A stretch of 64,000 bases of DNA from Eledone cirrhosa. Its lineage: Eukaryota. Shown one piece after another: positions 5,765 through 61,760 of this stretch. The DNA is taken from positions 81,468,001 through 81,532,000 of the forward strand of contig OZ024745.1 of NCBI GenBank assembly GCA_964016885.1. The letters are read 5' to 3'. Both the position numbers and the translations under genes were made by a program. Positions within the stretch are counted from its first letter, which is position 1, and each line of letters starts with the position of its first letter. The notes under the pieces were generated by a model. It had not been told where the DNA came from. It was given only the letters and a program-made list of their open reading frames with translations, and searched no databases.

Positions 5765-6433
5765 TTTTTCAAATTTTTTTTTTCGTTGTTGGAATCCATG
5801 TCCAGATTTGTGTTTTCGTCATTTTTCTCCGCAGATTCGTCTGTTTTTATCTTATTTTTTCCTTCCTTGTCTATGACGTTAGTTGGGAAGGAAGGGGGGA
5901 CTAAAGCGTGCGAGCTTACAACTCTTACCGCTGTCCCCCACCACTATTTTCGTTAGCTTCGTTTAACATTTCTGTCAGACGATTGAAATTTTTTTTTTTT
6001 GCCACAAAATTTTTAAAAACAGGTTTTTCACCCCTAGGAGAGGTAAAGATGAGCTGACCCACCGCCTGACAGTTCAGACGGGGGGTCAAGCTACACAATA
6101 GTATCAAAATTAAAATTGAACTTACAAAATTTCCGCAATAAATTTGAACAAAACTTCTGCGCGAAGTGAATTACATCTACGCTGTAGAACAGACGACAGC
6201 TAGATTATCTACATCTGGACAAATAGATAGATACATAGACAGGCACACAGTTACTAGTAGAGATGTATATACGATATGTTTATGTATGATAAATATACAA
6301 GAGCCTTGCTATGAATAATTTAAGCTGTGATCATGTTACAGCTATCTCAGTAGTTGTGTGAGAATGCCAGACACGTGTTTATCGATTTTATCCGCCATCT
6401 GAAATATTTACTCACTCGGTACTGAGACTTGCG

Positions 6434-6770
6434 AATGAAACATAGGCCGGCGATGCTCATTTGCATACAGTACAAATGAAACATCGGCTGGAGATGCTCA
6501 TGCGCATACAATACAAATGAAACATCAGCGAGAGATGCTCATTTGCATACAGCACAAATGAAACATCGGCTGGAGATGCTCATTTGCATACAGTACAACT
6601 GAACCTTCGGTTGGAGATGCTCATGCGCATACAGTACAAATGAAACATCGGCTGGAGATGCCCATCGACATATAGTACAAGTGAAACATCGGTTGGAGAT
6701 GCTCATTTGCATACAGTACAAATTAAACATCGGTGAGAGATGCTCATTTGCATACAGTACAACCGAACAT
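6434..6770. repeat. 41-bp tandem repeat, ~8 copies, 5 carrying a perfect octamer ATTTGCAT
   Basis: Unit ATGAAACATCGGCTGGAGATGCTCATTTGCATACAGTACAA; period 41 (6436, 6477, 6518). Confidence 0.93.
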
Positions 6771-10155: not shown

Positions 10156-10227
10156 ATACGCCCGCAAGCTCACATACAAATGTGTATATATAATTGTATA
10201 CATACACACACACACAAATATATATAT

Positions 10228-10311
<84 letters not shown>

Positions 10312-10394
10312 AATAAGATTTCGCTTCGAGCATTGCTTTATACAATATGTATAGAAATTTCGTATTTCGAAAGAAATACGGTTTTAGTCGCAAG

Positions 10395-10983
10395 CGGTAA
10401 GGCTAATAGAATAAACTCATGGTATGATAGCAATAAATACCAGAGTGTAATGTTCATCGATACAACCCCTAGAGGTGAATTAGCTTACAAATTTAGAAGG
10501 GCCCTAGATAAACATAAACTCAATATTAAGATAGTAGAAAGACCAGGTACCTCCGTAAAAACACTTATTAGCAAGACATACCCTTTTCAAAGACCCCCCT
10601 GTATAGATAAGAAATGTATAACCTGTAAAATAAGCCCCCATATTAACTGTAAAACTAGAAATGTAGTATATAGCATAAGATGTACTGAAGGACAATGTAG
10701 AGACAAAAATATAGTGTACATAGGTGAGACAGCTCGTAGTGTAGCGGAACGGATAAATGAACACTGGCGAGACCTTCAAGATAGTAAAGAATCATCTGTA
10801 CTCTACCAACATGCTAAAATAGAACATAAGGGTAAATTAGAGAACATAGAAATAAAAATAGAATCTACACACAGAAAAGACGCAATGTTTAGACAAATCA
10901 CAGAGGCAATAAACATAAAAGAATTACAACCAAAATTAAATAGAAAATATGAGTGGAACAGCAACATCACAACTTACAATTAA
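10395..10983 (+). pseudogene. 5'-truncated Penelope-like element, GIY-YIG endonuclease
   Basis: C..C..C, TRNVVYSIRC...C...VYIGETARSVAERINEH, EAINIKELQPKLN. Confidence 0.9.
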
Positions 10984-18025: not shown

Positions 18026-18244
18026 GTGTATGCGTATATGCGTATATACACGGGCGGTGGAACTGGGGCGGGGGCAAGGGGCCATTCCCCCTCGCCCAAT
18101 AATTCTATTTTTCTCCCCAAACTACCAAAAGACATAACTATTTGTATATACGCTACAATGTATGTACATGTTATGAAGAGACAGATGAGAGAGAGATATA
18201 TACATATATAGAGGAGGAGAGTTTGGTGTAAATTGATATATAAA

Positions 18245-18510
18245 TTTCTATTTATTTGCCACCAGGGTATAAAAGATTGGAACAAATACAAAGTAGGAGT
18301 TTACATACATTTAAAAAGACGTGTAAAAACATATAACAAATTAAATTTAACATTCGATGTCATCAATTGGGAGGGGGCGTTGACGTGGGGTCGCACACAC
18401 CCCCGAAAAAATGTGCAACCCTCCTCTTCAGGAGCACAAAGAGCGGGTGCTCCCTTCCTCTCCTCCTTCTTCTCCTCTCTCACCTACAGGCTGATATAGA
18501 GAGAAGGCCC
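18245..18510 (-). mobile_element. 5'-truncated Tx1 subfamily B copy (last ORF2 codons plus 3'UTR)
   Basis: Matches 18627-18891 with scattered differences; minisatellite sequence on both sides. Confidence 0.92.
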
Positions 18511-18864
18511 ATATAGAGAGGAAAGTCGGGAGAGTGTGTTGTATATTAGATATAGAGAGGGGGAGAGATTGATGTTTATTGATATAGAGAGGGGGTTGGA
18601 AGAGAGTACCCTGTAATAGATATATATTTCTATATATTTGCCACCAGGGCATCAAAGATTGGGACAAATACAAAGGGGGGAGTTTACATACATTTAAAAA
18701 GACGTGTAAAAACATATAACAAACTAAATTTAACAATCGATGTCCTCAATAGGGAGGGGCGTTGACATGGGTCGCACACACCCCCGAAAAAATGTGCAAC
18801 CCTCCTCTACAGCAGCACAAAGAGCGGGTGCTTCCTTCCTCTTCTCATTCTTCTCCTCTCTCAC

Positions 18865-21800
18865 CTACAGGCTGATATAGAGAGAAGGCCCATTCACTCG
18901 GGCCATTCTCGCTACTTTCACCCATCTTTCATAAAACTTGCTGGGGTAGAGCACCTCTCTCTCCATTCTGATCCTTCTTCTAAAGTGGTACTTGAAAAAA
19001 AAGACCAGTTGTTGGCCGTAGAGAAAGGTGTCTGACCTCAGCCCTTTCAACCTTGTACACCATACAACTTCTTTCGCCATAGCTATCACACAGAGGAAAA
19101 CCGCCTCTCCTTCGTTTTTGAATGGGGAGGCGGTTTGATTGTGACAATGTTCTCGGTGGTCAACCGGATTGGTCCCACCCGCAACAGTAGTCGTTCTACA
19201 TAGCCCCACAGGTCAGCAACGCCCGGGAAGTGTACGAATGCGTGTGCGACGGTTTCCTCGTTACGCACGCATCTTGGACAGATCTTCTTCGAGGGGTCCC
19301 TACCCGGGCGCCCGTGTCTGTAGAGCTTGTCCCGAACGGGTAGAGATCCTCGGTAACATTGCCAAGCCAGGGACTTTTGGAAGTTGTCCATCGGTCCCGG
19401 GCCAAACGTCCTACCGAACAGACTGGCCAGCTCGTCTTCCTCCATGCCCAGAGCCTCTCCGAGAGCGTCGTCGCACTTACTGCGCACCAACCCTCTATAG
19501 AATGTTGAGGTTGAGTCTCCACTGATTGCTGGATCCGCTTGCCAGAGGGCCGTGAGCGCCTGGGCACATTCAATGTGCCAGTCGCCCACTTTTCTCGGTC
19601 TTTGCTTGACCCAGGATTGCAGCTCGGTGAGTGAGACGAGTCTCGGAAAGGCTCGCCTCACAGACAGGGCCCACACCGGCTAACCGGTGAGGAATACCTG
19701 GAGGTGCCGTAGCCTTAATGCGTGTCTACGCATCGTCAGCCACGACATCCCCAGCCCTCCGTTCGAAGGGTGTTGACAGCAGATGGATCTTCTCACCAAA
19801 GGAGCCTGCTTCTTCCAAAGAAATCAGAAGAGCGCGCGCTCCATTTTGGCGAGTGTTTTCTCTGGGCAAGGCACGACGGTCAAGCGGTAGTAGATGACGG
19901 ACGCTATATAAGCGTTCGCCATCTCCGCTCGACCTTTCAGGGATAGTTTGCACTCGGCCCACTTCTGGGCGAGTGCAAAGACCTTTCCCGTTACCTCGTC
20001 CCAGTTTTTCTCCACCTGGAGGTCCGGCCGAACCAGACCCCGAGCAGCTTCACCGGTCCCTCCGTCCAGCGTCCGACGATGCCGTCGGACGGCATCGTTT
20101 TGCCCCTCCACGTCCCGAGTTGCAAACCGACGGACTTGTCTCGAGTTGCAAACCGACGGACTTGTCCCGGTTCAGCTTGGCTCCTGTGAACCTTTCATAT
20201 TCCTCCAGTAAGGTGCCGATCTGCCCGATTTCCGAGGCGCACGACACCATTACTGTCACGTCATCGGCGTAGGCCGACACCGCTTTCCGCAATCCCGGTT
20301 CCAAGGGGATGCCCTGCAACAGCTCCAGCTTCCTCAGTAGTGGCTCGAGAGCCAGCATATACAGGAGGGAGGAGAGAGGGCATCCCTGTCGGATGGATCG
20401 CGTGATTTGGAACGGCTCCGAGAGGTAGCCGTTCACCTTGACCCTCGAGCAGGTGTTGTTGCTGTGCATTGCAGCAATCCAACCTCTGAAAACGGGTCCG
20501 AAGCCTGCCGCCGCGAGCACCGCATCCAGGTACCGATGGTCAACCTTATCGAACGCTTTAGATTGATCCAAGTTGACAGGGCCCCACCAAAGCCGGGTTC
20601 GTTCCCTACCCTCTCTACGATGTATCGCAAGTGGTGGAGGTTGTCGTGTATGGACCTGGACGGGATTGCGCATGTCTGCGCTTCTCCCACCAGGTTCCCT
20701 AAGACAAGCGCCAACCTCTTCGCTAACACCTTGGCCAAAATCTTTAACTCTGTGTTTAGCAGAGTTATGGGCCTGAAGTTATCTATGTCATCCCCCTTGT
20801 TCTCGTCCTTCCTCACCAGCGTGACTACGCCCTTGGTCACAGAACTGGGAATTCTCCCGTTCTGTTGCCAGTTGCAGTAGACCGCCTCGAGGAGACCGGA
20901 GAACAAGCCCGGCATCGCTACATAAAGTTCGTATGGTAGACCATCGAGACCCGGAGATTTGCGTTTGCCGCATTGGCTCAGCGCTTCCCCTATTTCAGCG
21001 GCTGAAATCGGCCTCTCGCAGGACTTCGCCTCCCCGTCCGAGAGCCGCGCCAGACCGTCGAGATATGGACCGATATCCATGGCCCCACCCGGCCCGCCGC
21101 CGCTCCCGAACAGTCGTGCAAAGCGCCGTTGAAAGGCCGCGCTCATCCGCTCAGGTTCAAGGATCACGCGTCCATCCTGGTCCTTCAAAGACCGAATCGT
21201 GGACTTGTTTCCACTTTTTGCTTCTGTCACACGGGCCCAGCTAACAGCTTTGGCTCCCTCGTTACCCAGAGCACGTATTTTACTCCTGACAACGCAGCCC
21301 TCGTGCTTCGCATCAAAGAACTGGTCTAGGGCCGTTCTTGACGCCAGCACGCCGGCCACGTTTCCACTCCTAATCGCCTCTTCTACTCTATTTGTTAATT
21401 CCTTTTCAGTTCTATTCCTATCTGATGCTAATTCCCGACTAAAACCTATCGATTCTATTCTAATTTCTCTCTTGAGAGAGCCCCACCACCTGTTGTTGAC
21501 AATTGCCCCCGTCAAACGCTGCTTAACTAGTGTGCTAATCCGCTTACTGTAAGCTTTGTTTGTCGGTAAAGACAAGTTTAGCTTCCAGTAAACGGGTCCC
21601 TGTCTATGAGTTCTATCAAGGTTGACCACTCCGGTCAACAACTTGTGATTCGAATAGTCAACCATGAACATTCGTGGACAGCTTAATATTTCCCTATCCT
21701 TATTTCTAACTAGGATCCTATCTAAGTACGACCTGGATGTTCCGCTGCGATTACTCCACGTCCACCGTGGCACAGTCGGAAAATCCAGTCGATATCTATC

Positions 21801-22325
21801 GGCCAGATCAAATCGGCCGATTAATCGTTTGAGGCTGTTACACCCCCCTCTATCGGGACATGCCCCTACATAGTCCCAACGTGCATCCAGGATACCATTC
21901 CGGTCCCCCACTAAAAGCAAGGAGCGAGACGTTCCCAGGAAATTCTCCAGGCGTCGGAAGAAGTCCGGTCGCGGTGTCCCAGATGGGGCATACGCTGCCA
22001 CCAGCCTGAAAGCTCCACCTTCACCACTGCCGACGTCTAAAACCACCAGTCGACCCTCCGGGTCCAGGTGTACCTTCTGTGTGGCAAGACCCAGGTATTT
22101 TCGCAGCAGAACGACAACCCCACCCCCACCCCTCGGCTGACAGAGAGATGCGTAGATCTCAAAGTCGTCGAAGATGGGGGCCAGTTGGCGCTCGCTGCTG
22201 ATCCTAGACTCGCAAATAACCATTACATCCACTCTGTGCGACCTGAGGTCATTTAAGAGTTTGCCCTGTTTCCAGGATATCCCCAAGCCGCGTGCATTCA
22301 CACATCCAACTCTTATATTGGCCAT
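18865..22325 (-). pseudogene. ORF2p APE-RT-CCHC with several frameshifts and stops
   Basis: ORF pieces 20433-22325, 20050-20673, 19824-20111, 19086-19676 and 18865-19209; ~21-bp internal duplication at ~20116-20167. Confidence 0.92.
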
Positions 22326-22367
22326 GTTGGTGCTGAAGAGGTAAAAAGGAAGAGGAAAGGAAATTAC

Positions 22368-24219
22368 TTACCTCTTCGTCTCCTGGGGACCAGGCTGCAC
22401 AATTTCCATGGGGGTGTTGGAAGGGTTGTTTGGTGGGGTGGTGGTTTGTGGTGGGGTGAGGACATCAGTGTGTGGTGGGATTAGGGTGTTTGGTGGGGTG
22501 TGGGTGTCTGGTGTGTGGGTGGGGAAACATCTCAATAGGATGCTGTTATGTGGTTTGGTGCAGTTGGTCCCCACATGCATTGGATAGTTCTTTTTCAAAG
22601 TTACATAGGTTTCCGTTGGGACCCTAATCATCATTAGGTGCGGTTTGTTCGCTGCATAGGTGAAAGTGATCCCTTCGGTTTCCACCGAAGGGTTATATTC
22701 TCTCGCTTTCATCAACGTTTTATTGTTCTTGTTAATGTATGTATAGAGTTTTTGTTGTGTTGTGTTTGTTTTTGTTTGTTGTTCTTGTGCGTGTTTGCGA
22801 TTTGTAGTACGTGTTATGTTTTGGGGAGGGGTGGGTTTTTTTATTTGTGATGTTTGTTCTGTTTGTGCTGGTGGTTGTGTGTTTGTGGCATTTTTGTTAA
22901 TGTGGTGCCTTTTTGTTTCCTTTTCACCTGTTGAAAGGGTTCTTCCTCGTCGTCACTGGGTGACGTTGATACGGAGTCCTCTTCCGTGTTGTTGGGGAGG
23001 GGTATATTTTGGGGTTTTGTTGTGGTTGCTTTTGTATTTGTTTTAGGTGGGGAGGGGTTGGGTGGAACAGTGTTTTGTGTTGTTATTTTTCCGTGTTGTT
23101 GTGGTTGTTGTTGTGGTTGTTGTTGTGGTGGTGGTGGTGGTGGTGATGGTGGTGGTGGTGGTGGTGGTGGTGGTGGTGGTGGTTGTGTTGTTGCGTTGGG
23201 GGTTGGCAGAAGAGCCTTTCTTTTTTGACTCGTTAATTGAGGACAGGCAGCCCTCAGGTGACCCCTGCTTAAGCAGTGGTAACATGACGGCCGCCTTCCC
23301 TCCACTGAAATGTTTATATAAGTTATCCCGTCCAGAGGCACGCGTTGTGGGATATTCGCGATTCGTTCTGGGCTCATTTGCACCAGAACTTCTACGGTGG
23401 TCCCACCAAATACACCTCCGGAGGACTTTCCTATTGAAATTATCTTATCCTATTGAAAGTTAATGATTCCACATAGTATCCACCAAATATTTACATTTGG
23501 TGTGATACTCATGATTTTTATTCTTTGTGTCCTTTTTCCCCTGTATGTGGGGAAACAGGTGAAGCGGGACGACACAATGGGCGATACCGAGTACTTTTGA
23601 GCTGTTGACTGGTTGTTCATTAGCACCGAAATTCTACCAAACAGTTTACCTTTTTGTATGAAGGTTAAGTCCTTCATTGCATCTTTTAGAACCAGCTCAA
23701 TTTCATTTTGTGATAATTGAGCTGGTTTTCTTGTTTCGTTCGATATTGTCCTGAAAACCACAGTTTTTAGGACAGCCTTTCTACGTAATTCCTGTGGAGA
23801 ATTGATGCTAAAAGCACCGTTTTCGCCAAAAGTCACGAATTGTTTTGCGTCTTGTAATAGTTGTTTAGCATTTGTTATGTCTATTGGCGTGTATAGTTCG
23901 TTTTTTTTACAGTCTGTGCGAATGTTGTTTTGGTGTTGTCTTTTTTGTTGCTGCTGTTGTTGTCACTGTTGGTAATATTGTTCATGTTTTCCTTGGTGTT
24001 GCTATTGTTGCAGTTGTTGGTTGTGGTGTTATTGTCATTGTTCTTGTTGTTGGTGCTGGTATTATTAACCGGGTTTGGTTTCGTGGTTTCAATATTTTCA
24101 ACGTTTTTCGATAATGCGAGGGGGGAAGGCTGCAAGCTTTGTACTCCTACCTTCCCTCGACCACTTTTCTTAGCGGGCGTGGCACTCACGACAGTGTGCG
24201 AGGTTGAAATGGCATCCAT
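22368..24219 (-). pseudogene. ORF1p, frameshifted
   Basis: CYHCLSRGHLRAAC knuckle, poly-Pro from (CCA)n, C-terminus PMEIVQPGPQETKR. Confidence 0.88.
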
Positions 24220-24423
24220 TGCTGATACCAAGTCTACACAGTTTTGAGATGAAAATGAAAATTTCGCCCCAGAAAGGGGCGAAAATTTGTTGACTCAACG
24301 TCTGAAGGCCCAGGCAAGGGGTTAAACTAAACAATGCTATTAAATTGAGCAATGAACTCACAGTTTTTTTGACAATAATCCGTAAAAATCCGGAGCGAAG
24401 TAATTCACGTCTATATCAAGTGG

Positions 24424-25165
24424 TAATTGATATAGAGAGGGGTGTTGAGAGAGTGTGTTGTATATTAGATATAGAGAGGGGGAGAGATCGATGTTTATTG
24501 ATATAGAGAGGGGGTTGGAAGAGAGAACCGTGTAGTAGATATATATAGAGAGAGAGTTTGGGGTTACTTAATATAGAGATGGGGAGAGTTTGGTGTTAAT
24601 TGATATAGAGAGGGGGATTGGAAGAGAATCCCATGTAGTAGATATAGAGGGGGAGAGTTTGGTGTTACTTGATATAGAGAGAGGGATTGGAAGAGAGTCC
24701 CGTGTAGTAGATATAGAGAGAAGGAGGGTTTGGTGTTAATTTATATAGAGAGGGATATTGGAAGAACGTTCCGCGTAGTAGATATAGAGAGGGGAAGGGT
24801 TTGGTGTTACTTGATATAGAGAGGAGGATTTGAAGAGATTTGCGTGTAGTAGATATAGAGAGGGGGATTGGAAGAGAGTACCGTGTTGTAGATATAGAGA
24901 GGGGGAAATTTGGTGGTAATTAATATAGAGAGGAGGGTTGCGAGAGTCTGTTGTAGAAAGGAGAATTTAGGAGGGACTGATATACAGAGGCGGATTGGGA
25001 GAGATACGTGTAGATATTTATACAGTGTGAGAGAGTGTATTAGTCTTAGATATAGAGAGTGGGATAAGAGAGGCGGTGTCGTGGTAGAGTTTGTTTTTTG
25101 AGATACAGAGGGGGGGTTAAAAGAGAGTTTTGTGTGATAGACATAGAGAAGAGGAGCGTTTGGAA
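24424..25165. repeat. ~60-bp minisatellite made of two ~30-bp GATATAGAGAGGGG subunits
   Basis: Recurring GATATAGAGAGGGGGATTGGAAGAGAGTCCCGTGTAGTA-GATATAGAGAGGGGAGAGTTTGGTGTTAATT; also at 18190-18243, 18511-18626, 47771-48010 and 53685-53805. Confidence 0.92.
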
Positions 25166-25166
25166 T

Positions 25167-25501
25167 CACTCTCGGGTCCCAAATAATATGAGGGGTGGCA
25201 ATAATGGGTGGGGACATTTGAGAAATCAGTAATTGTAAAGTGTTCGTTCGTAAATATGGGATTTCTTGTAATGTTTTTCTTTTGTCATATATAATGTTTT
25301 TTAATGTAAAATAAAATTATTATTAGATTTTCCAGCTTCTGTATCAATATGAATCACTTACAATAACATTTCACCGGAGATAGATTAGCAAAATTTAATA
25401 AGCGGGTGGAGTGAGGTGGGACAGAAATAAAACCCTGGGTGTGGGGAATCTGACAAATTAATAAGCGGTGGGTGGGGATGAATATTCAAGACCTGAAAGT
25501 A
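25167..25501 (-). mobile_element. MITE-like repeat adjoining the minisatellite
   Basis: Imperfect inverted ends TACTTTCAGGTCTTGAATA / ATTATTTGGGACCCGAGAGT; homologous to 47405-47770 and 53806-54125. Confidence 0.75.
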
Positions 25502-25827
25502 CGTAAATTATATATAGAAGATGAATAAATTGGGTATAATACCAGTTTCTTACCAAATGCGAAGAAGCTCGATATATTAACCCCCATAGGAAAGGGCACA
25601 GAGCATAATTTTTTAAAACTATATATATACAGTGTCGGTGGAACTAGCGGGAGAAGGCATGCCCCCTCCAATAATTATATTTTCTCCCCAAACTACCAAA
25701 ACACACATCTATCTGTATATGCGCTACAATTTATGTACATGTTATGTTTATCGCATATCGAGGTTTTCTGACTATTTTCTAAAATGGTCAGAAAACTTCG
25801 TGTGCGAAGAGCTAAACTAATCACTAC

Positions 25828-27444: not shown

Positions 27445-27861
27445 CGGTTTTCCTCTGTATAGTGGTAAAAACGATTATATGGTAGACGAGATTGAGAGGA
27501 CTGAGGACAGATGCCTTTCTCTCCGGACAACAACTCATTCCCTTCTTTAGGTACCACTTCAGAAGGAGAATCAGAGTGGAGAGAGAAGCACTACACCCCA
27601 GTAAATTTACTGAAAGGTGGGTGAATGTATCAAAAATGGCCCGAGTGATTGGGCCTTCTCTGTATATAAACCTATAGGTTGAAGATGAGAGCAAAAGGAG
27701 GAAAGAAGCATTTTCACAACACGCTCCTGGAGTTGAGGGTTGTTCTATCGACGGGGTATTAAACAACCCATTTGTAACGCCTCCCCCCTATTGGGGATTT
27801 CGATTGTTAAATTTGCTTGTTTTAATAATATTTTTACACGATTGTATGTAAAATCCCCGGC
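27445..27861 (+). mobile_element. Tx1 subfamily C 3' fragment fused to the 5' side of copy 3
   Basis: Matches ~33087-33498 but lacks the last ~50 nt of the tail. Confidence 0.9.
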
Positions 27862-27881
27862 AAATTTTGCCAACTATAAAA

Positions 27882-28192
27882 CATGAATAACCCGGAAAGA
27901 ACGCAGGAGAACGTCGACAGAGAGAAGAGGGTAGAAAGGCAGATATTAACGCTATATCTGCTTCTGCCACTATGAACGTCGCCATGGATACGACTGTCAA
28001 CAAAGAGAAAAATATAATATTACCACTTAAACATTTAAAAATTTCTACCGTCGAAGTGGAGAAAAATAACACACAGGAAAACACAGGAATTAAACCTATT
28101 AATATACATACGCATGAAAAAGACAACGACAACAACTCCATAGATACACCTCGTCAAGAAATTGCGATTTCCAACACCGAGGCTGACAACAA

Positions 28193-40529: not shown

Positions 40530-40662
40530 TAGAAGTGGTTACACAACAGTTAGTTCACCATACCGAGAACAATTGCTTCACCTTAGCGGATCTTCAGAAG
40601 ATCCGCTAAGGTGAAACAATTGTTCTCGGTATGGTGAACTAACTGTTGTGTAACGACTTCTA
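40530..40662. repeat. Near-perfect palindrome centred on a hammerhead core
   Basis: Centre GATCTTC-A-GAAGATC; arms read (CT)GAAGA-TCCGCTAAGGT-GAAAC-AATT-GTT. Confidence 0.85.
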
Positions 40663-47404: not shown

Positions 47405-47770
47405 TACTCTCAGGTCTTGAATAATGCGTCCCCCCCTCCTCCAGTTTATTAATTTATTAGACCCCCCCAGCCCCGCCCCGCACATTTTCATTCCACCCCT
47501 CCTCGCTTATTAAATTTACTAATCTATCTCCGGCGAAATTTTATTTTATCATAAAGTGATTCATATTGATACAGCAGCAGGAGAACCTAATAATAATTTT
47601 ATTTTACATTAAAAATACTTTATATATGACAAAAGAACATTACAAGAAATCCCATATTTACGAACGTATACTATACAGTTACCGATTCCCCATCCCATGC
47701 TTATAAAAATTTAAGCAAATGTCACCCACTGCTTGTTCCAACCCCTCCTATTTTTTGGGACTCGAGAGTA
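47405..47770 (+). mobile_element. MITE-like repeat preceding the minisatellite
   Basis: Ends TACTCTCAGGTCTTGAATAAT / ATTTTTTGGGACTCGAGAGTA (TA-flanked, Tc1/mariner-like). Confidence 0.78.
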
Positions 47771-48010
47771 CCACCAAACTCCCCTCCTCTCTATGTCTAT
47801 GACATAACACTCTCTTTTAATACCCCTCTCTATATACATCCACCAAATTTCCCCCTCTCTTTATCTAACACTAACATACCCACCCCCTCTATATCTACTT
47901 CACGGAACTCTCTTCCAATCCCCCTCTCTATATCAATTAACACCAAACTCTCCCCCTCTCTATATCTACTACACGGAACTCTCTTCCAACTCCCATCTCT
48001 ATATCAATTA
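47771..48010. repeat. Same ~60-bp minisatellite; resumes at 53685-53805
   Basis: CCCCTCTCTATATC subunits. Confidence 0.9.
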
Positions 48011-48211
48011 CCACTTGATATAGACGTGATTTACTTTGCTCCGGATTTTTACGGATTGTTGTAAAAAAAAACTGTGAGTTTATTGATCAATTTAATAACA
48101 TTGTTTGGTTTAGCGCCTTGCCTTGGCCGTCAGACGTTAAGTCAACAAATTTTCGCCACTTTCTGGGGCAAAATTTTCAATTTTCATCTAAAAACTGTAG
48201 ACTTGGTGGCA

Positions 48212-49978
48212 ATGGATGCCATTTCCACCTCGCACACTGTCGCAAGTGCCACGCCCACTAAGAAAAGTGGTGGAGGGAAGGTAGGAGTACAAAGCTTGCA
48301 GCCGTCCCCCCTCGTATCATCGAAAAACGTTGAAAATATCGAAACCGCGAAACGAAACCCGGTAAATAATACCAGCACCAACAACAAGAACGATGACAAC
48401 AACACCACAACCAACAACTGCAACAATAGCAACACCAATATTACCAACAGTGACAGTAACACGAAAGACAACAACACCAAAACAACATTTGCACAGACCG
48501 TAAAAAAAAACGAACTATACACGCCAATAGACATAACAAATGCTAAACAACTATTACAAGACGCAAAACAATTCGTGACTTTTGGCGAAAACGGTGCTTT
48601 TAGCATCAATTCTCCACAGGAATTACGTAGAGGGGCTGTCCTGAAAACTGTGGTTTTCAGGACAATATCGAACGTAACAAGAAAACCAGCTCAATTATCA
48701 CAAAATGAAATTGAGCTGGTTCTAAAAGACGCAATGAAGGACTTAACCTTCATACAAAAAGGTAAACTGTTTGGTAGCATTTCCGTGCTGATGAACAACC
48801 ATTCAACAGCTCAAAAGTACTCGATAGCACCCATTGTGTCGTCCCGCTTCACCTTTTACCCCACATACAAGGGAAAAAGGACACAAAGAATAAAAATCAT
48901 GAGTATCACACCAAATGTAAACATTTGGTGGATACTATGTGGAATAATAAACTTTGACGAAGACAAGATAATTTCAATAGGAAAGTCCTCCGGAGGTGTA
49001 TTTGGTGGGACCAGCGTAGAAGTTCTGGTGCAAATGAGCCCAGAACGAATAGCGAATATCCCACAACGCGTGCCTCTGGACGGGATAACTTATATAAACA
49101 TTTCAGTGGAGGGAAGGCAGCCGTCATGTTACCACTGCTTAAGCAGGGGTCACCTGAGGGCTGCCTGTCCTCAATTAACGAGTAAAAAAAAAAATCTCTT
49201 CTGCCAACCCCCAACACAACAACACAACCACCACCACCACCACCACAACAACACGGAAAAATAACAACACAAAACACTGTTCCACCTAACCCCTCCCCAC
49301 CTAAAACAAATACAAAAGCAACCACAACAAAACCCCAAAATATACCCCTCCCCAACAACACGGAAGAGGACTCCGTATCAACGTCACCCAGTGACGACGA
49401 GGGAGAACCCTATAAACAGGTGAAAAGGAAACAAAAAGGCACCACATTAACAAAAATGCCACAAACACACAACCACCAGCACAAACAGAACAAACATCAC
49501 AAATAAAAAACCCACCCCTCCCCAAAACATAACACGTACTACAAAACGCAAACACGCGCAAGAACAACAAACAAAAACAAACTCAACACAACAAAAACTC
49601 TATACATACATTAACAAGAACAATAAAACGTTGATGAAAGCGATAGAAAATAACCCTTCGGTGGAAACCGAAGAGATCACTTTCACCTACGCAGCGAACA
49701 AACCGCACCTAATGATGATTAGGGTCCCAACGGAAACCTATGTAACTTTGAAAAAGAACCATCCAATGCATGTGGGGACCAACTGCACCAAACCACATAA
49801 CAGCGTCCTATTGAGATGTTTCCCCACCCCCACACCAGACACCCACACCCCACCAAACACCCTAATCCCACCACACACTGATGTCCTCACCCCACCACAA
49901 ACCACCACCCCACCAAACAACCCTTCCAACACCCCCATGGAAATTGTGCAGCCTGGTCCCCAGGTGACCAAGAGGTAA
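48212..49978 (+). pseudogene. ORF1p with frameshifts in homopolymer runs
   Basis: CYHCLSRGHLRAAC; C-terminal piece 49631-49978. Confidence 0.88.
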
Positions 49979-50020
49979 GTAATTTCCTTTCCTCTTCCTT
50001 TTTACCTCTTCAGCACCAAC

Positions 50021-53000
50021 ATGGCCAGTATAAGAGTTGGATGTGTGAATGCACGCGGCCTGGAAACAGGGAAAACTCTTAATTGACCTCAGGTCGCACA
50101 GAGTGGATGTAATGGTTATTTGCGAGTCTAGGATCAGCAGCGAGCGCCAACTGGCCCCCATCTTCGACAACTTTGAGATCTACGCATCTCTCTGTCAGCC
50201 GAGGGGTGGGGTGGGGTTGTCGTTCTGCTGCGAAAATACCTGGGTCTTGCCACACAGAAGGTACACCTGGACCCGGAGGGTCGACTGGTGGTTTTAGACG
50301 TCGGCAGTGGTGAAGGTGGAGCTTTCAGGCTGGTGGCAGCGTATGCCCCATCTGGGACACCGCGACCGGACTTCTTCCGACGCCTGGAGAATTTCCTGGG
50401 AACGTCTCGCTCCTTGCTTTTAGTGGGGGACTGGAATGGTATCCTGGATGCACGTTGGGACTATGTAGGGGCATGTGCCGATAGAGGGGGGTGTAACAGC
50501 CTCAAACGATTAATCAGCCGATTTGATCTGGCCGATAGATATCGACTAGATTTTCCGACTGTGCCACTGTGGACGTGGACTAATCTCAGCGGAACATCTA
50601 GGTCGTACCTAGATAGGTTCCTAGTTAGAAATAAGGATAGGGACATATTAAGCTGTCCACGAATGTTCATGGTTGACTATTCGGATCACAAGTTGTTGAC
50701 CGGAGTGGTCAACCTTGATAGAACTCATAGACAGGGACCCGTTTACTGGAAGCTAAACTTGTCTTTACCGACAAACAAAGCTTACAGTAAGCGGATTAGC
50801 ACACTAGTTAAGCAGCGTTTGATGGGGGCAATTGTCAACAGCAGGTGGTGGGGCTCTCTCAAGAGAGAAATTAGAATAGAATCGATAGGTTTTAGTCGGG
50901 AATTAGCATCAGATAGGAATAGAACTGAAAGGGAATTAATAAATAGAGTACAAGAGGCGATTAGGAGTGGCAACGTGGCCGGGGTGCTGGCGTCAAGAAC
51001 GGCCCTAGACCAGTTCTTTGATGCGAAGCACGAGGGCTGCGTTGTCAGGAGTAAAATACGTGCTCTGGGTAACGAGGGAGCCAAAGCTGTTAGCTGGGCC
51101 CGTGTGACAGAAGCAAAAAGTGGAAACAAGTCCACGATTCGGTCTTTGAAGGACCAGGATGGACGCGTGATCCTTGAACCTGAGCGGATGAGCGCGGCCT
51201 TTCAACGGCGCTTTGCACGACTGTTCGGGAGGGGCGGCGGGCCGGGTGGGGCCCTGGAATTCGGTCCATACCTCGACGGTCTGGCGCGGCTCTCGTACGG
51301 GGAGGCGAAGTCCTGCGAGGGGCCGATTTCAGCCGCTGAAATAGGGGAAGCGCTGAGCCAATGCGGCAAATGCAAATCTCCGGGTCTCGATGATCTACCA
51401 TACGAACTTTATGTAGCGATGCCGGGCTTGTTCTCCGGTCTCCTCGAGGCGGTCTACTGCAACTGGCAACAGAACGGGAGAATTCCCAGTTCTGTGACCA
51501 AGGGCGTAGTCACGCTGGTGAGGAAGGACGAGAACAAGGGGGATGACATAGATAACTTCAGGCCCATAACTCTGCTAAACACAGAGTTAAAAATTTTGGC
51601 CAAGGTGTTAGCGAAGAGGTTGGCGCTTGTCGTCGGGAACCTGGTGGGAGAAGCGCAGACATGCGCAATCCCGTCCAGGTCAATTCACGACAACCTCCAC
51701 TTCATGCGATACATCGTAGAGAGTGTATGGAACGAACCCGGCTTTGGTGGGGCACTGATCAACTTGGATCAATCTAAGGCGTTCGATAGGGTTGACCATC
51801 GGTACCTGGATGCGGTGCTCGCGGCGGCAGGCTTCGGACCCGTTTTCAGAGGTTGGATTGCTGCAATGCACAGCAGCAACACCTGCTCGAGGGTCAAGGT
51901 GAACGGCTACCTCTCGGAGCCGTTCCAAATCACGCGATCCATCCGACAGGGATGCCCTCTCTCCTCCCTCCTGTATATGCTGGCTCTCGAGCCACTACTG
52001 AGGAAGCTGGAGCTGTTGCAGGGCATCCCGTTGGAACCGGGATTGCGGAAAGCGGTGTCGGCCTACGCCGATGACGTGACAGTAATCGTGTCGTGCGCCT
52101 CGGAAATCGGGCAGATCGGCACCTTACTGGAGGAATATGAAAGGTTCACAGGAGCCAAGCTGAACCGGGACAAGTCCGTCGGTTTGCAACTCGGGACGTG
52201 GAGGGGAAAAACGATGCCCTCCGACGGCATCGTCGGACGCTGGACGGAGGGACCGGTGAAGCTGCTCGGGGTCTGGTTCGGCCGGACCTCCAGGTGGAGA
52301 AAAACTGGGACGAGGTAACGGGAAAGGTCTTTGCACTCGCCCAGAAGTGGGCCGAGTGCAAACTATCCCTGAAAGGTCGAGCGGAGATGGCGAACGCTTA
52401 TATAGCGTCCGTCATCTACTACCGCTTGACCGTCGTGCCTTGCCCAGAGAAAACACTCGCCAAAATGGAGCGCGCGCTCTTCCGATTTCTTTGGAAGAAG
52501 CGGGCTCCTTTGGTGAGAAGATCCATCTGCTGTCAACACCCTTCGAACGGAGGGCTGGGGATGTCGTGGCTGACGATGCGTAGACACGCATTAAGGCTAC
52601 GGCACCTCCAGGTATTCCTCACCGGTTAGCCGGTGTGGGCCCTGTCTGTGAGGCGAGCCTTTCCGAGACTCGTCTCACTCACCGAGCTGCAATCCTGGGT
52701 CAAGCAAAGACCGAGAAAAGTGGGCGACTGGCACATTGAATGTGCCCAGGCGCTCACGGCCCTCTGGCAAGCGGATCCGGCAATCAGTGGAGACTCAACC
52801 TCAACATTCTATAGAGGGTTGGTGCGCAGTAAGTGCGACGACGCTCTCGGAGAGGCTCTGGGCATGGAGGAAGACGAGCTGGCCAGTCTGTTCGGTAGGA
52901 CGTTTGGCCCGGGACCGATGGACAACTTCCAAAAGTCCCTGGCTTGGCAATGTTTCCGAGGATCTCTACCCGTTCGGGACAAGCTCTACAGACACGGGCG

Positions 53001-53445
53001 CCCGGGTAGGGACCCCTCGAAGAAGATCTGTCCGAGATGCGTGCGTGACGAGGAAACCGTCGCACACGCATTCGTACACTGCCCGGGCGTTGCTGACCTG
53101 TGGGGCTATGTGGAACGACTACTGTCGCGGGTGGGACCAATCCGGTTGACCACCGAGAACATTGTCACGATCAAACCGCCTCCCCCATTCAAAAACAAAG
53201 GAGAGGCGGTTTTCCTCTGTGTGATAGCTATGGCGAAAGAAGTTGTATGGTGGACAAGGTTGAAAGGGTTGAGGTCAGACACCTTTCTCTCCGGCCAACA
53301 ACTGGTCTTTTTTTTCAAGTACCACTTTAGAAGAAGGATCAGAATGGAGAGAGAGGTGCTCTACCCCAGCAAGTTTTATGAAAGATGGGTGAAAGTAGCG
53401 AGAATGGCCCAAGTGAATGGGCCTTCTCTCTATATCAGCCTGTAG
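50021..53445 (+). pseudogene. ORF2p APE-RT-CCHC, disrupted
   Basis: 676-aa core ORF; small deletion at ~50058, frameshifts at ~50205 and ~52282, TAG at 52627. Confidence 0.93.
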
Positions 53446-53805
53446 GTGAGAGAGGAGAAGAATGAGAAGAGGAAGGAAGCACCCGCTCTTTGTGCTGCTG
53501 TAGAGGAGGGTTGCACATTTTTTCGGGGGTGTGTGCGACCCATGTCAACGCCCCTCCCTATTGAGGACATCGATTGTTAAATTTAATTTGTTATATGTGT
53601 TTTACACGTCTTTTTAAATGTATGTAAACTCCCCTCTTTGTATTTGTCCCAATCTTTGATGCCCTGGTGGCAAATAAATAGAAATATATATCTACTACAC
53701 GGTACTCTTCCAAATCCTCATCTCTATATCCATTAACACTAAACTCTCCCCCTCTTTATATCTACCATGACACTATCTCTCTCTCAATGCCTCTCCCTCT
53801 ATCAA

Positions 53806-54125
53806 TTTCTCTTAGGTCTTGAATAATACCCCCCCCCCTCCCCGTTTATTAAATTTTCAGTTTCCCCCCATCCCATCCCCCGTGTTCATTATATCCGCAA
53901 CCCTCCTTGCTTATTAAAGTTTGCATAAGCTATCTCCGGTGAAATGTTATTGTAAGTGATTCATATCGATACAGCAACTGGAGAATCTAAAAATAATTGT
54001 ATTTCACATTAAAAAAAACATTATATATGACAAAAAATAAAACATTACAAGAAATCCCGTATTTACGAACGTACACTATACAATTACTTTGTACACTATA
54101 CAATTACCCCCGCTTATATAGAATT
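53806..54125 (+). mobile_element. Third copy of the MITE-like repeat
   Basis: Homologous to 47405-47715. Confidence 0.78.
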
Positions 54126-54453: not shown

Positions 54454-56100
<1,647 letters not shown>

Positions 56101-61109: not shown

Positions 61110-61191
61110 AAAGTTCTATTTAAATTGTTGGGATACAACAAGCAAATATTTTTATAACTGATATAAAGCACTCGACAAGTATTTGGAGTAA

Positions 61192-61577
61192 ATATACGAT
61201 ATTAACAAATGGAAACTATATTTATAAAACCATATCTATTTTATTATACATATTTCAAGGATACCATGTTAAATTAGGGTATGCTTTCATCAGCCAAAAT
61301 ACAATATATACCAGTTTTATAAATAAATATTGACATACCCTTTCAAAATGCAACCGTTACTTTTGGAAGACATCAGGGATAGATGACTATCCCTGATGTC
61401 TTCCAAAAGTAACGGTTGCATTTTGAAAGGGTATGTCAATATTTATTTATAAAACTGGTATATATTGTATTTTGGCTGATGAAAGCATACCCTAATTTAA
61501 CATGGTATCCTTGAAATATGTATAATAAAATAGATATGGTTTTATAAATATAGTTTCCATTTGTTAATATCGTATAT
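61192..61577. repeat. Perfect palindrome, ~190-bp arms, 4-6 nt loop; each arm holds a degenerate hammerhead
   Basis: Centre GGGATA-GATGAC-TATCCC; CTGATGA-AAG..CTT-GAAA-TATGTA-TA at 61476-61524. Confidence 0.92.
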
Positions 61578-61760
61578 ATATATATATATATATATATCAA
61601 AGGCATGTATTGAGTTAGAAACTCAAAATAGTCTCATTACAGTAAATTAGCAAAACCCTATTGTCTGTAGTTGGTATTTATTTCACCTTAGCGATTCTGG
61701 TACATTACGATTTGAACACATATATGTATATGTCTGTGTTCGTTTTTCTTTTTTGTTCAG

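Follow-up and report, generated by a model that had tools for sequence, protein, structure and literature searches.

The window, which is the whole 64,000-nucleotide stretch analysed here, comes from the 3.0 Gb genome of Eledone cirrhosa and contains four long LINE copies. They consist of ORF1 followed by ORF2, the latter with an APE endonuclease, a reverse transcriptase (RT), and a zinc finger. Pfam matches to Exo_endo_phos, RVT_1, and zf-RVT support their membership of the LINEs, and the ORF1-ORF2 layout fits the L1 clade. Among solved retroelement structures, to which the comparison of ORF2 was restricted, the closest protein was L1 ORF2p (E = 1.5e-20 over residues 4–563), and R2 gave an E value of 2e-5. 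Judged from these comparisons, the LINEs of the window are L1 clade non-LTR retrotransposons. Their RT has 62 homologues, of which the best are 44–45% identical and none is named Tx1; the elements may be of the Tx1 type.

Copies 2 and 4 belong to family B and are 96.8% identical over 4.6 kb; they are relatives and therefore not independent cases. Copy 1 belongs to family A, and copy 3, which lacks its 5′ end, belongs to family C. At its start (27445–27972), copy 3 has a 3′ piece from family C joined to part of the 5′ UTR, and the 5′ end is lost. The features of the family B copies and their surroundings are as follows.

47770..47994, plus strand: minisatellite target upstream of copy 4, in which long monomers of about 38 nt alternate with short ones of about 33 nt, period 71
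47995..53686, plus strand: copy 4, subfamily B1, full-length LINE assigned to the L1 clade, with broken reading frames
47995..48021, plus strand: 27-nt leader of copy 4 (B1), predicted +1 to +27, with +1 to +20 as a copy of the beginning of a short monomer
47998..48024, plus strand: hairpin of copy 4, 10 bp with a 7-nt loop; arm 1 is target-like and arm 2 runs into the box
48022..48039, plus strand: DPE-like box of copy 4, AGACG (predicted +28 to +32), followed by a conserved block
48212 onwards, plus strand: ORF1 of copy 4, followed by an RT piece (50663–52318) and a zf-RVT piece (52864–53445)
53687..53807, plus strand: minisatellite target downstream of copy 4, first monomer long
18625..24439, minus strand: copy 2, subfamily B2, full-length
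24413..24439, minus strand: leader of copy 2, predicted +1 at 24439, box at 24408–24412
47407–47682, 53809–54087, 25228–25494; 18043–18175 and 25624–25746: blocks of a dispersed repeat

Families A, C, D, E, and G sit in (ATCT)n, and in nearly all of 92 family B copies, the 3′ flank begins at one and the same minisatellite core. Target-specific insertion into repeats, a trait of the Tx1 group, is present in these LINEs. The genome contains 388 exact 3′ ends of family B and 230 plus up to 38 of its 5′ boxes. Well over half of the family B copies look full-length, which is unusually high for a LINE. A 5′-truncated family B fragment (18213–18512) lies directly after the downstream array of copy 2; the junction is at the monomer core and has a 2-nt overlap.

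The minisatellite is embedded in a dispersed repeat of larger size; unique blocks of this repeat are found again, in direct orientation, on either side of the LINE. A search for terminal inverted repeats around this host repeat, within 1.5 kb in 15 flank pairs and the two window copies, gave none. The window also contains long near-perfect palindromes at 54472–56095, 61189–61580, and 40530–40662 (1632, 392, and 133 bp; 96–99% identity), a separate 41-bp tandem array of 8 copies upstream of copy 1 (6434–6762), and a 267-aa frame (10180–10983). The end of this frame presumably resembles the GIY-YIG nuclease of Penelope-like elements.

Inheritance of the leader

The leader was present in all 137 distinct B1/B2 junctions; 136 of them were within 3 mismatches of 28, and one had a 1-nt deletion. 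Copy 4 has A at +1, whereas C occupies this position in 95% of the 137 junctions. The original prediction would have failed if other full-length copies lacked the stated sequence upstream. However, all 90 copies picked by the B1/B2 box alone (the first 30 and 60 of the next 70 among 230 listed) carried the leader with 0–3 mismatches in 28, a result valid for B1/B2 boxes only, as the box pattern missed the B3/B4 variants, which came via their 3′ ends. Genome-wide, 230 boxes and 223 exact leader-plus-box matches were counted with patterns that are not nested. A first set of 65 family B junctions was found with queries that excluded the first hairpin arm; the 9 bases after the target core were within one mismatch in 64 of these 65, compared with 51 of 481 ordinary monomers. 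In all of these counts, copies from one family do not represent independent cases.

The frequency of the majority base in B1/B2 is 0.93–0.99 at +1 to +10, 0.85 at −1, and 0.61–0.73 at −2 to −7, and ordinary monomers of the same type (152 monomers) reach 0.76–0.91 at +1 to +5. Near-invariance thus begins at 47995, 27 nt before the box, and the level of the array is reached two bases further upstream. This step bears out the expectation that the family B element extends about 16 nt upstream of 48011. The first hairpin arm, together with the rest of the leader, belongs to the element and is inherited. The arm had been equated with the target satellite; it is indeed target-like, but it is a fixed part of the element and not mere flank. 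A simple target-site duplication was rejected as its source, since in-register identity to the 3′ flank mostly spans 5–11 nt and the leader base wins at differing sites. Positions +1 to +20 cover both sides of the inferred nick, 5 nt before it and 15 nt after it. The conservation at +1 to +5 may reflect target choice instead of inheritance, and the step over the background is modest. The first half of the leader is missing from a single full-length copy, L383.

Sister leaders and phylogeny

A search by the 388 3′ ends revealed other leaders before nearly the same box in 38 copies, 30 of which were examined. The B4a, B4c, and B4d leaders copy other parts or variants of the array, and B3b and B4b sit in (ATCT)n. 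A tree was calculated from the 1.3 kb after the box and rooted on families D and E; families A, C, and G and rows L237, L243, and L401 were left out and two long rows were kept, an earlier tree having been distorted by two long G rows. The 20 minisatellite copies form one clade (100/100) that is nested among relatives that target (ATCT)n. Inside this group, the leader types are intermixed and do not form single clades. The tree puts a single switch from (ATCT)n to the minisatellite, and the minisatellite clade holds five leader types.

Stacked behind other copies (in the 3′ flanks of L252, L265, L269, and L271, and at L102, L106, and L113) are five or more additional families that target (ATCT)n, and all of them have a variant of the box. 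An inverted copy of the target lies just before the box at L269.

The DPE-like box and the predicted start

The end of the family A element is defined by the following features of copy 1.

6174..6205, minus strand: 5′ end of copy 1 (family A), first base at 6205, with its own non-target leader and a 5+5 bp hairpin
6174–6178, minus strand: box AGATG of copy 1 at +28
6206..6229, minus strand: five extra bases (6206–6210, an inverted copy of the target start) and a 19-bp target-site duplication (6211–6229, partner 355–373)

The three conserved boxes of copies 1, 2, and 4 read as quoted in the original prediction. It had also placed the box of copy 1 about 33 nt inside the target-site duplication, and this distance is correct; however, because the five extra bases intervene, the box is at +28 from the first base of the element itself. 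The general position claimed for the box, about +28, is seen in family A, where target-site duplications define the end of the element. All 30 family A junctions reach +1 or +2 of the non-target leader, with A at +1 in 26 of 27 and the box at +28. Positions +28 to +32 thus follow from the duplication-defined end in family A and from the conservation step in family B. Judged from sequence, a box-to-start distance of 27 nt appears to be common to the two families, with the start predicted. For the box we assumed a DPE consensus of the RGWYV type; family C has T at its first position.

The predicted +1 is A in 14/14 B3, 13/16 B4, 13/14 C, and 18/20 D copies, and in 0/7 E, 0/2 F, and 14/30 G copies; the families are related, so these scores are not independent. 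The predicted +1 of B1/B2 is C in a pyrimidine run (A in 2 of 79), which is more similar to what we take to be the TCT motif. According to PMC8461331, a DPE depends on an initiator that lies at strict spacing; at the predicted +1 of B1/B2, such an initiator is absent. Families C, D, E, F, and G have 0–11 bases of their own before the box, with (ATCT)n upstream. In 10 of 33 tandem insertions of these families, only 15–26 nt lie between the tail of the previous element and the box. Therefore, the 27-nt leader is not always copied in, and these families could start nearer the box. The suggestion that the element borrows its initiator from the target fits the (ATCT)n families better than the B1/B2 copies for which it was made, with their C at the predicted +1.

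A 66–70-nt GT...AG segment with donor- and acceptor-like ends lies just after the box in the 5′ UTR of families C (L121–L139) and G (L222–L251). By a strict pattern, it was found in 7/14 C and 22/28 G copies, and families A, B, and E showed only 35–40-nt stretches.

5′ joins and array register

Target-site duplications were found in 20 of 21 full-length family A copies (median 21 bp, one mismatch allowed; 7 ill-defined in pure repeat), and 15 of the 20 duplication-bearing copies have 1–7 extra bases. The extra bases are inverted copies of the target at 2 of 30 family A junctions (6206–6210 in copy 1, and L095), similar to snap-back joins. At family B joins, extra bases are essentially absent, and the monomer before the leader has its natural length in nearly all cases. 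B1/B2 accordingly show uniform full-length joins without extra bases, which is the trait of anneal-type 5′ joining.

At diagnostic sites in 47 in-register copies, the leader base was found 113 times and the target base 3 times, a ratio inflated by copies that are two monomers out of register and by mutations that the 3′ flank acquired later. The cleanest case of the leader overriding the target is provided by 5 copies that were nicked at a long monomer and still carry a short-type leader. Target sequence was carried into non-matching sites in the 5 short-to-long copies and in L046, where a short duplication and 2 extra bases are followed by the leader from +1. A family B insertion wholly outside the array was not found. 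L279 is an exception, with target bases retained up to +20; therefore, the crossover can fall anywhere within the homology.

The register was scored in 92 family B copies with both ends, of which 74 were classifiable and 18 remained unclassified. In 25 of the 30 copies whose 3′ flank begins with a long monomer, the monomer upstream is likewise long, compared with 15 of 123 in arrays (p = 9e-14). The upstream monomer of B3a is short in 6 of 6 classifiable copies (2 were not), compared with 21 of 124 in B1/B2 (p = 5e-5). The B3a leader copies the long monomer and the B1/B2 leader copies the short one, and their registers are opposite.

Copy 4 is a long-to-long (out-of-register) join, as judged from the downstream array that starts with a long monomer. 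It possibly has a one-monomer duplication; a variant is common to both sides, but the duplication was not significant because 37% of other flanks score equally. Copy 2 is flanked by a three-monomer duplication of approximately 115 bp (24429–24543 and 18510–18624), identical at 105 of 115 positions, and none of 91 other flanks reaches that score. Monomer-multiple duplications were found in copy 2, L044, and L272. Duplications explain about 4 of the 25 long-to-long joins, and most are not duplications. The remaining joins would be monomer losses; empty sites were not observed. The same register pattern could also be produced by site-specific cutting of the top strand or by recombination at a later time. 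Among 8 truncated family B copies in the satellite, duplications of 15–17 bp are present in 2 and match the length of the post-nick part of the leader; the other 6 have no clear duplication. The junction anatomy fits the annealing of the cDNA to the target that was originally proposed.

The hairpin

The hairpin of copy 4 lies exactly at its predicted position (arms 47998–48007 and 48015–48024, 7-nt loop), and that of copy 2 on the minus strand (24410–24436) is identical in sequence. The bulged 5+5 bp hairpin of copy 1 (6175–6205) has another sequence, also as predicted. Compared with shuffled sequences, the folds of copies 4 and 2 had z values of −3.5 and −3.8 (2 and 1 of 200 shuffles as good). 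The fold of copy 1 had a z value of −0.8 in 66 nt (41/200 shuffles as good); for +1 to +32 alone, 18 of 1000 shuffles were as good. Perfect 10-bp stems are not rare, with 35 overlapping matches at about 19 places in the window. What goes beyond chance is the fixed place of the B1/B2 stem and not the stem itself. All 10 stem pairs are kept in 116 of the 137 distinct B1/B2 junctions.

A role as a shared functional 5′ element was not supported, as the hairpins of families A and B are not homologous and C, D, B3a, and B4a have none. A covariation test between A and B is impossible because their leaders are not homologous. A universal 5′ signal was likewise rejected, since the stem is missing in several related families. 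It is 10 bp long in B1/B2 and 6–7 bp long, with some G-U pairs, in B3b (6 bp; 6/6), B4b (6 bp with one G-U; 8/8), B4c (7 bp; 2/2), and G (7 bp with two G-U; 17/30). No stem longer than 4 bp was found in C (14 copies), D (21 examined; 328 in the genome), E (7), B3a (8), and B4a (5); therefore, the hairpin is not required. The best explanation of the 10-bp hairpin of B1/B2 is a by-product or an optional add-on. The start of the box is complementary to the target core, and the B1/B2 stem extends that pairing. The arm before the box is partly ancestral, as seen in B3b, and both arms were lengthened together in B1/B2; selection on the hairpin is therefore possible.

Discussion

The inherited leader of family B spans the inferred nick, extends to about 27 nt before the box, replaces target sequence, and sets the register of the 5′ join. 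From these observations, we infer the start site, the annealing, and an order of events. The LINEs start with a fixed copy of their own insertion site; it probably arises because the box would set the start 27 nt upstream in the target, and it probably allows the cDNA end to anneal to the next target. An ancestor with its own sequence starting just before the box would have inserted with a 15–20-bp duplication. The box would have put +1 in the flank, and the flank and duplication would have become the first bases of the RNA. Because the box would fix +1 upstream while the element's own sequence begins near the box, the RNA would start with target sequence; because the RNA leader is target sequence, the cDNA end could anneal to the target. 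After target-primed reverse transcription, the 3′ end of the cDNA would pair with the target's top strand at the best-matching monomer. Such pairing would give seamless joins, and monomer-sized duplications or losses if this monomer is not the nicked one. Every new capture would give a new leader, with at least five in the minisatellite clade. Annealing and a borrowed initiator, offered as two options by the original prediction, are then best read as one mechanism. A point against this mechanism is that, of the 20 homologous bases in a free cDNA end, 10 would be concealed by the B1/B2 hairpin.

With annealing as proposed, the hairpin might have been selected because it masks the RNA leader: the nicked primer strand, complementary to +6 to +20, would then be kept from priming at the RNA 5′ end. 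Masking is the most testable function of the hairpin, although we regard it as unlikely. The box-adjacent arm pairs with target-like sequence in the leaders of B3b, B4b, B4c, G, and B1/B2, but three to four of the pairs come free with the complementarity of the box start to the target core. From B3b to B1/B2, both arms became 2 bases longer in register as the target changed, although such a two-sided change is one event, and a compensatory pair was not seen among the B1/B2 copies. The stem-bearing B1/B2 group is the larger one (230 boxes versus 38 for B3/B4), and the stemless B3a leader starts past the nick; however, C, D, E, B3a, and B4a all lack a stem above 4 bp.

The leader might otherwise be a frozen piece of target from a master copy, with site-specific top-strand cutting followed by end joining, and the box would then not be a +28 DPE. 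The short spacers in 10 of 33 tandem cases point in this direction, as do the missing initiator at +1 of B1/B2 and a start that is only predicted. However, this explanation does not account for the near absence of extra bases, which are present in 15 of 20 family A copies, for the register flip of B3a that follows its leader, or for the same 27-nt spacing in families A and B. We therefore consider it distinctly improbable, and less likely than masking.

Read-through from the host repeat, followed by trimming near +1 by a self-cleaving RNA or a nuclease, would resemble R2, which gains target-homologous 5′ ends in this manner (PMC3774820), and it would suit the B1/B2 copies without an initiator. 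It is highly improbable, however, because no Rfam family reached the threshold over 47850–48350 (2 matches, E = 1.8 and 2.1), unrelated leaders without a shared fold replace one another, and a discrete end with the same spacing is seen in family A. An HDV-like 5′ ribozyme in particular was rejected on the same two grounds, namely the lack of an Rfam match at threshold and of a common fold among the leaders. Folding back of the cDNA end on the hairpin to prime its own second strand, despite the family A stem flush with +1 and the inverted target copies of copy 1 and L095 that recall snap-back events (PMC11331408), is the least probable explanation of all, since the family B stem begins at +4 and would leave the cDNA end unpaired, no inverted leftovers occur at family B joins, and most families lack the stem.

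A broader scenario can be put forward tentatively. A Pol II LINE would gain target homology without a ribozyme, as its DPE would measure 27 nt back into the insertion context, and the target would supply the start and become the leader. New contexts would found new leaders, locking the switch from (ATCT)n to the minisatellite; copies would be transcribable mainly in the right repeat, and the hairpin would have evolved to hide the leader from the nicked primer.

Of the steps of LINE retrotransposition, the joining of the 5′ end is the least understood, and for the precise insertion of transgenes by R2 proteins, target-homologous 5′ ends are important. One genome here offers a natural comparison between sister families with and without a target-copied leader, with young copies numbering in the hundreds and a single array in which two leaders impose opposite registers. 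By the proposed mechanism, a promoter-bearing element would acquire target homology in a simple manner, and a LINE could lengthen or shorten a host minisatellite by whole monomers.

Comparison with known systems

Anneal-type joining (R1A and R2), DPE promoters of LINEs, and repeat-targeting Tx1 families have already been described separately. In the literature consulted, we found no description of the leader, of a DPE that reaches into the target, or of leaders being captured repeatedly; Repbase, subscription papers, and supplements may describe the families. The accessible part of PMC7265360 treats 3′ junctions.

As far as the accessible text of Stage and Eickbush (2009, PMC2718515) describes it, R1A of the Drosophila melanogaster group has target sequence at the 5′ end of its RNA and invariant joins without extra bases, whereas ancestral R1 makes 14-bp duplications with extra bases. 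Truncated R1A copies keep duplications, and rare joins consist of a duplication and then the leader. The uniform family B joins, set against the duplications of family A, are similar to this case, and L046 is like the rare R1A joins. R1A differs in that its target is 28S rDNA with a 9-bp deletion and its carried sequence lies upstream of the nick. Here, the leader spans the nick, the tandem-array target allows slips by monomers, and several leaders coexist. That text gives no account of the origin of the upstream sequence of R1A.

The R2 ribozyme cleaves upstream in 28S, and the target-homologous 5′ RNA leads to uniform joins by cDNA annealing (PMC3774820; PMC11331408), for which 11 bp of homology can suffice in cells (PMC11331408). 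In contrast to the present LINEs, for which no ribozyme match was found, R2 is co-transcribed and self-cleaving, and it has another type of nuclease.

Target-specific Tx1 families include Tx1L in Tx1D, Kibi in (TC)n, Koshi in (TTC)n, and crocodilian Tx1 (PMC4494074). They share with the present LINEs microsatellite or repeat-element targets and tandem stacking, and SINEU-2B has a 5′ extension from its own target (PMC4494074). However, the targets here are (ATCT)n and the 71-bp minisatellite, and the accessible part of PMC4494074 does not describe a 5′ leader or promoter geometry.

DPE-type internal promoters with a box at +28 to +32 are reported for jockey, Doc, G, I, F, SART1, TRAS1, and L1Tc (PMC4748587). 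The box lies at the same +28 to +32 from the 5′ end here, directly so in family A. The difference is that the promoters of those elements are internal, whereas most families described here have little or no sequence of their own before the box, and their predicted +1 would fall in target-identical DNA.
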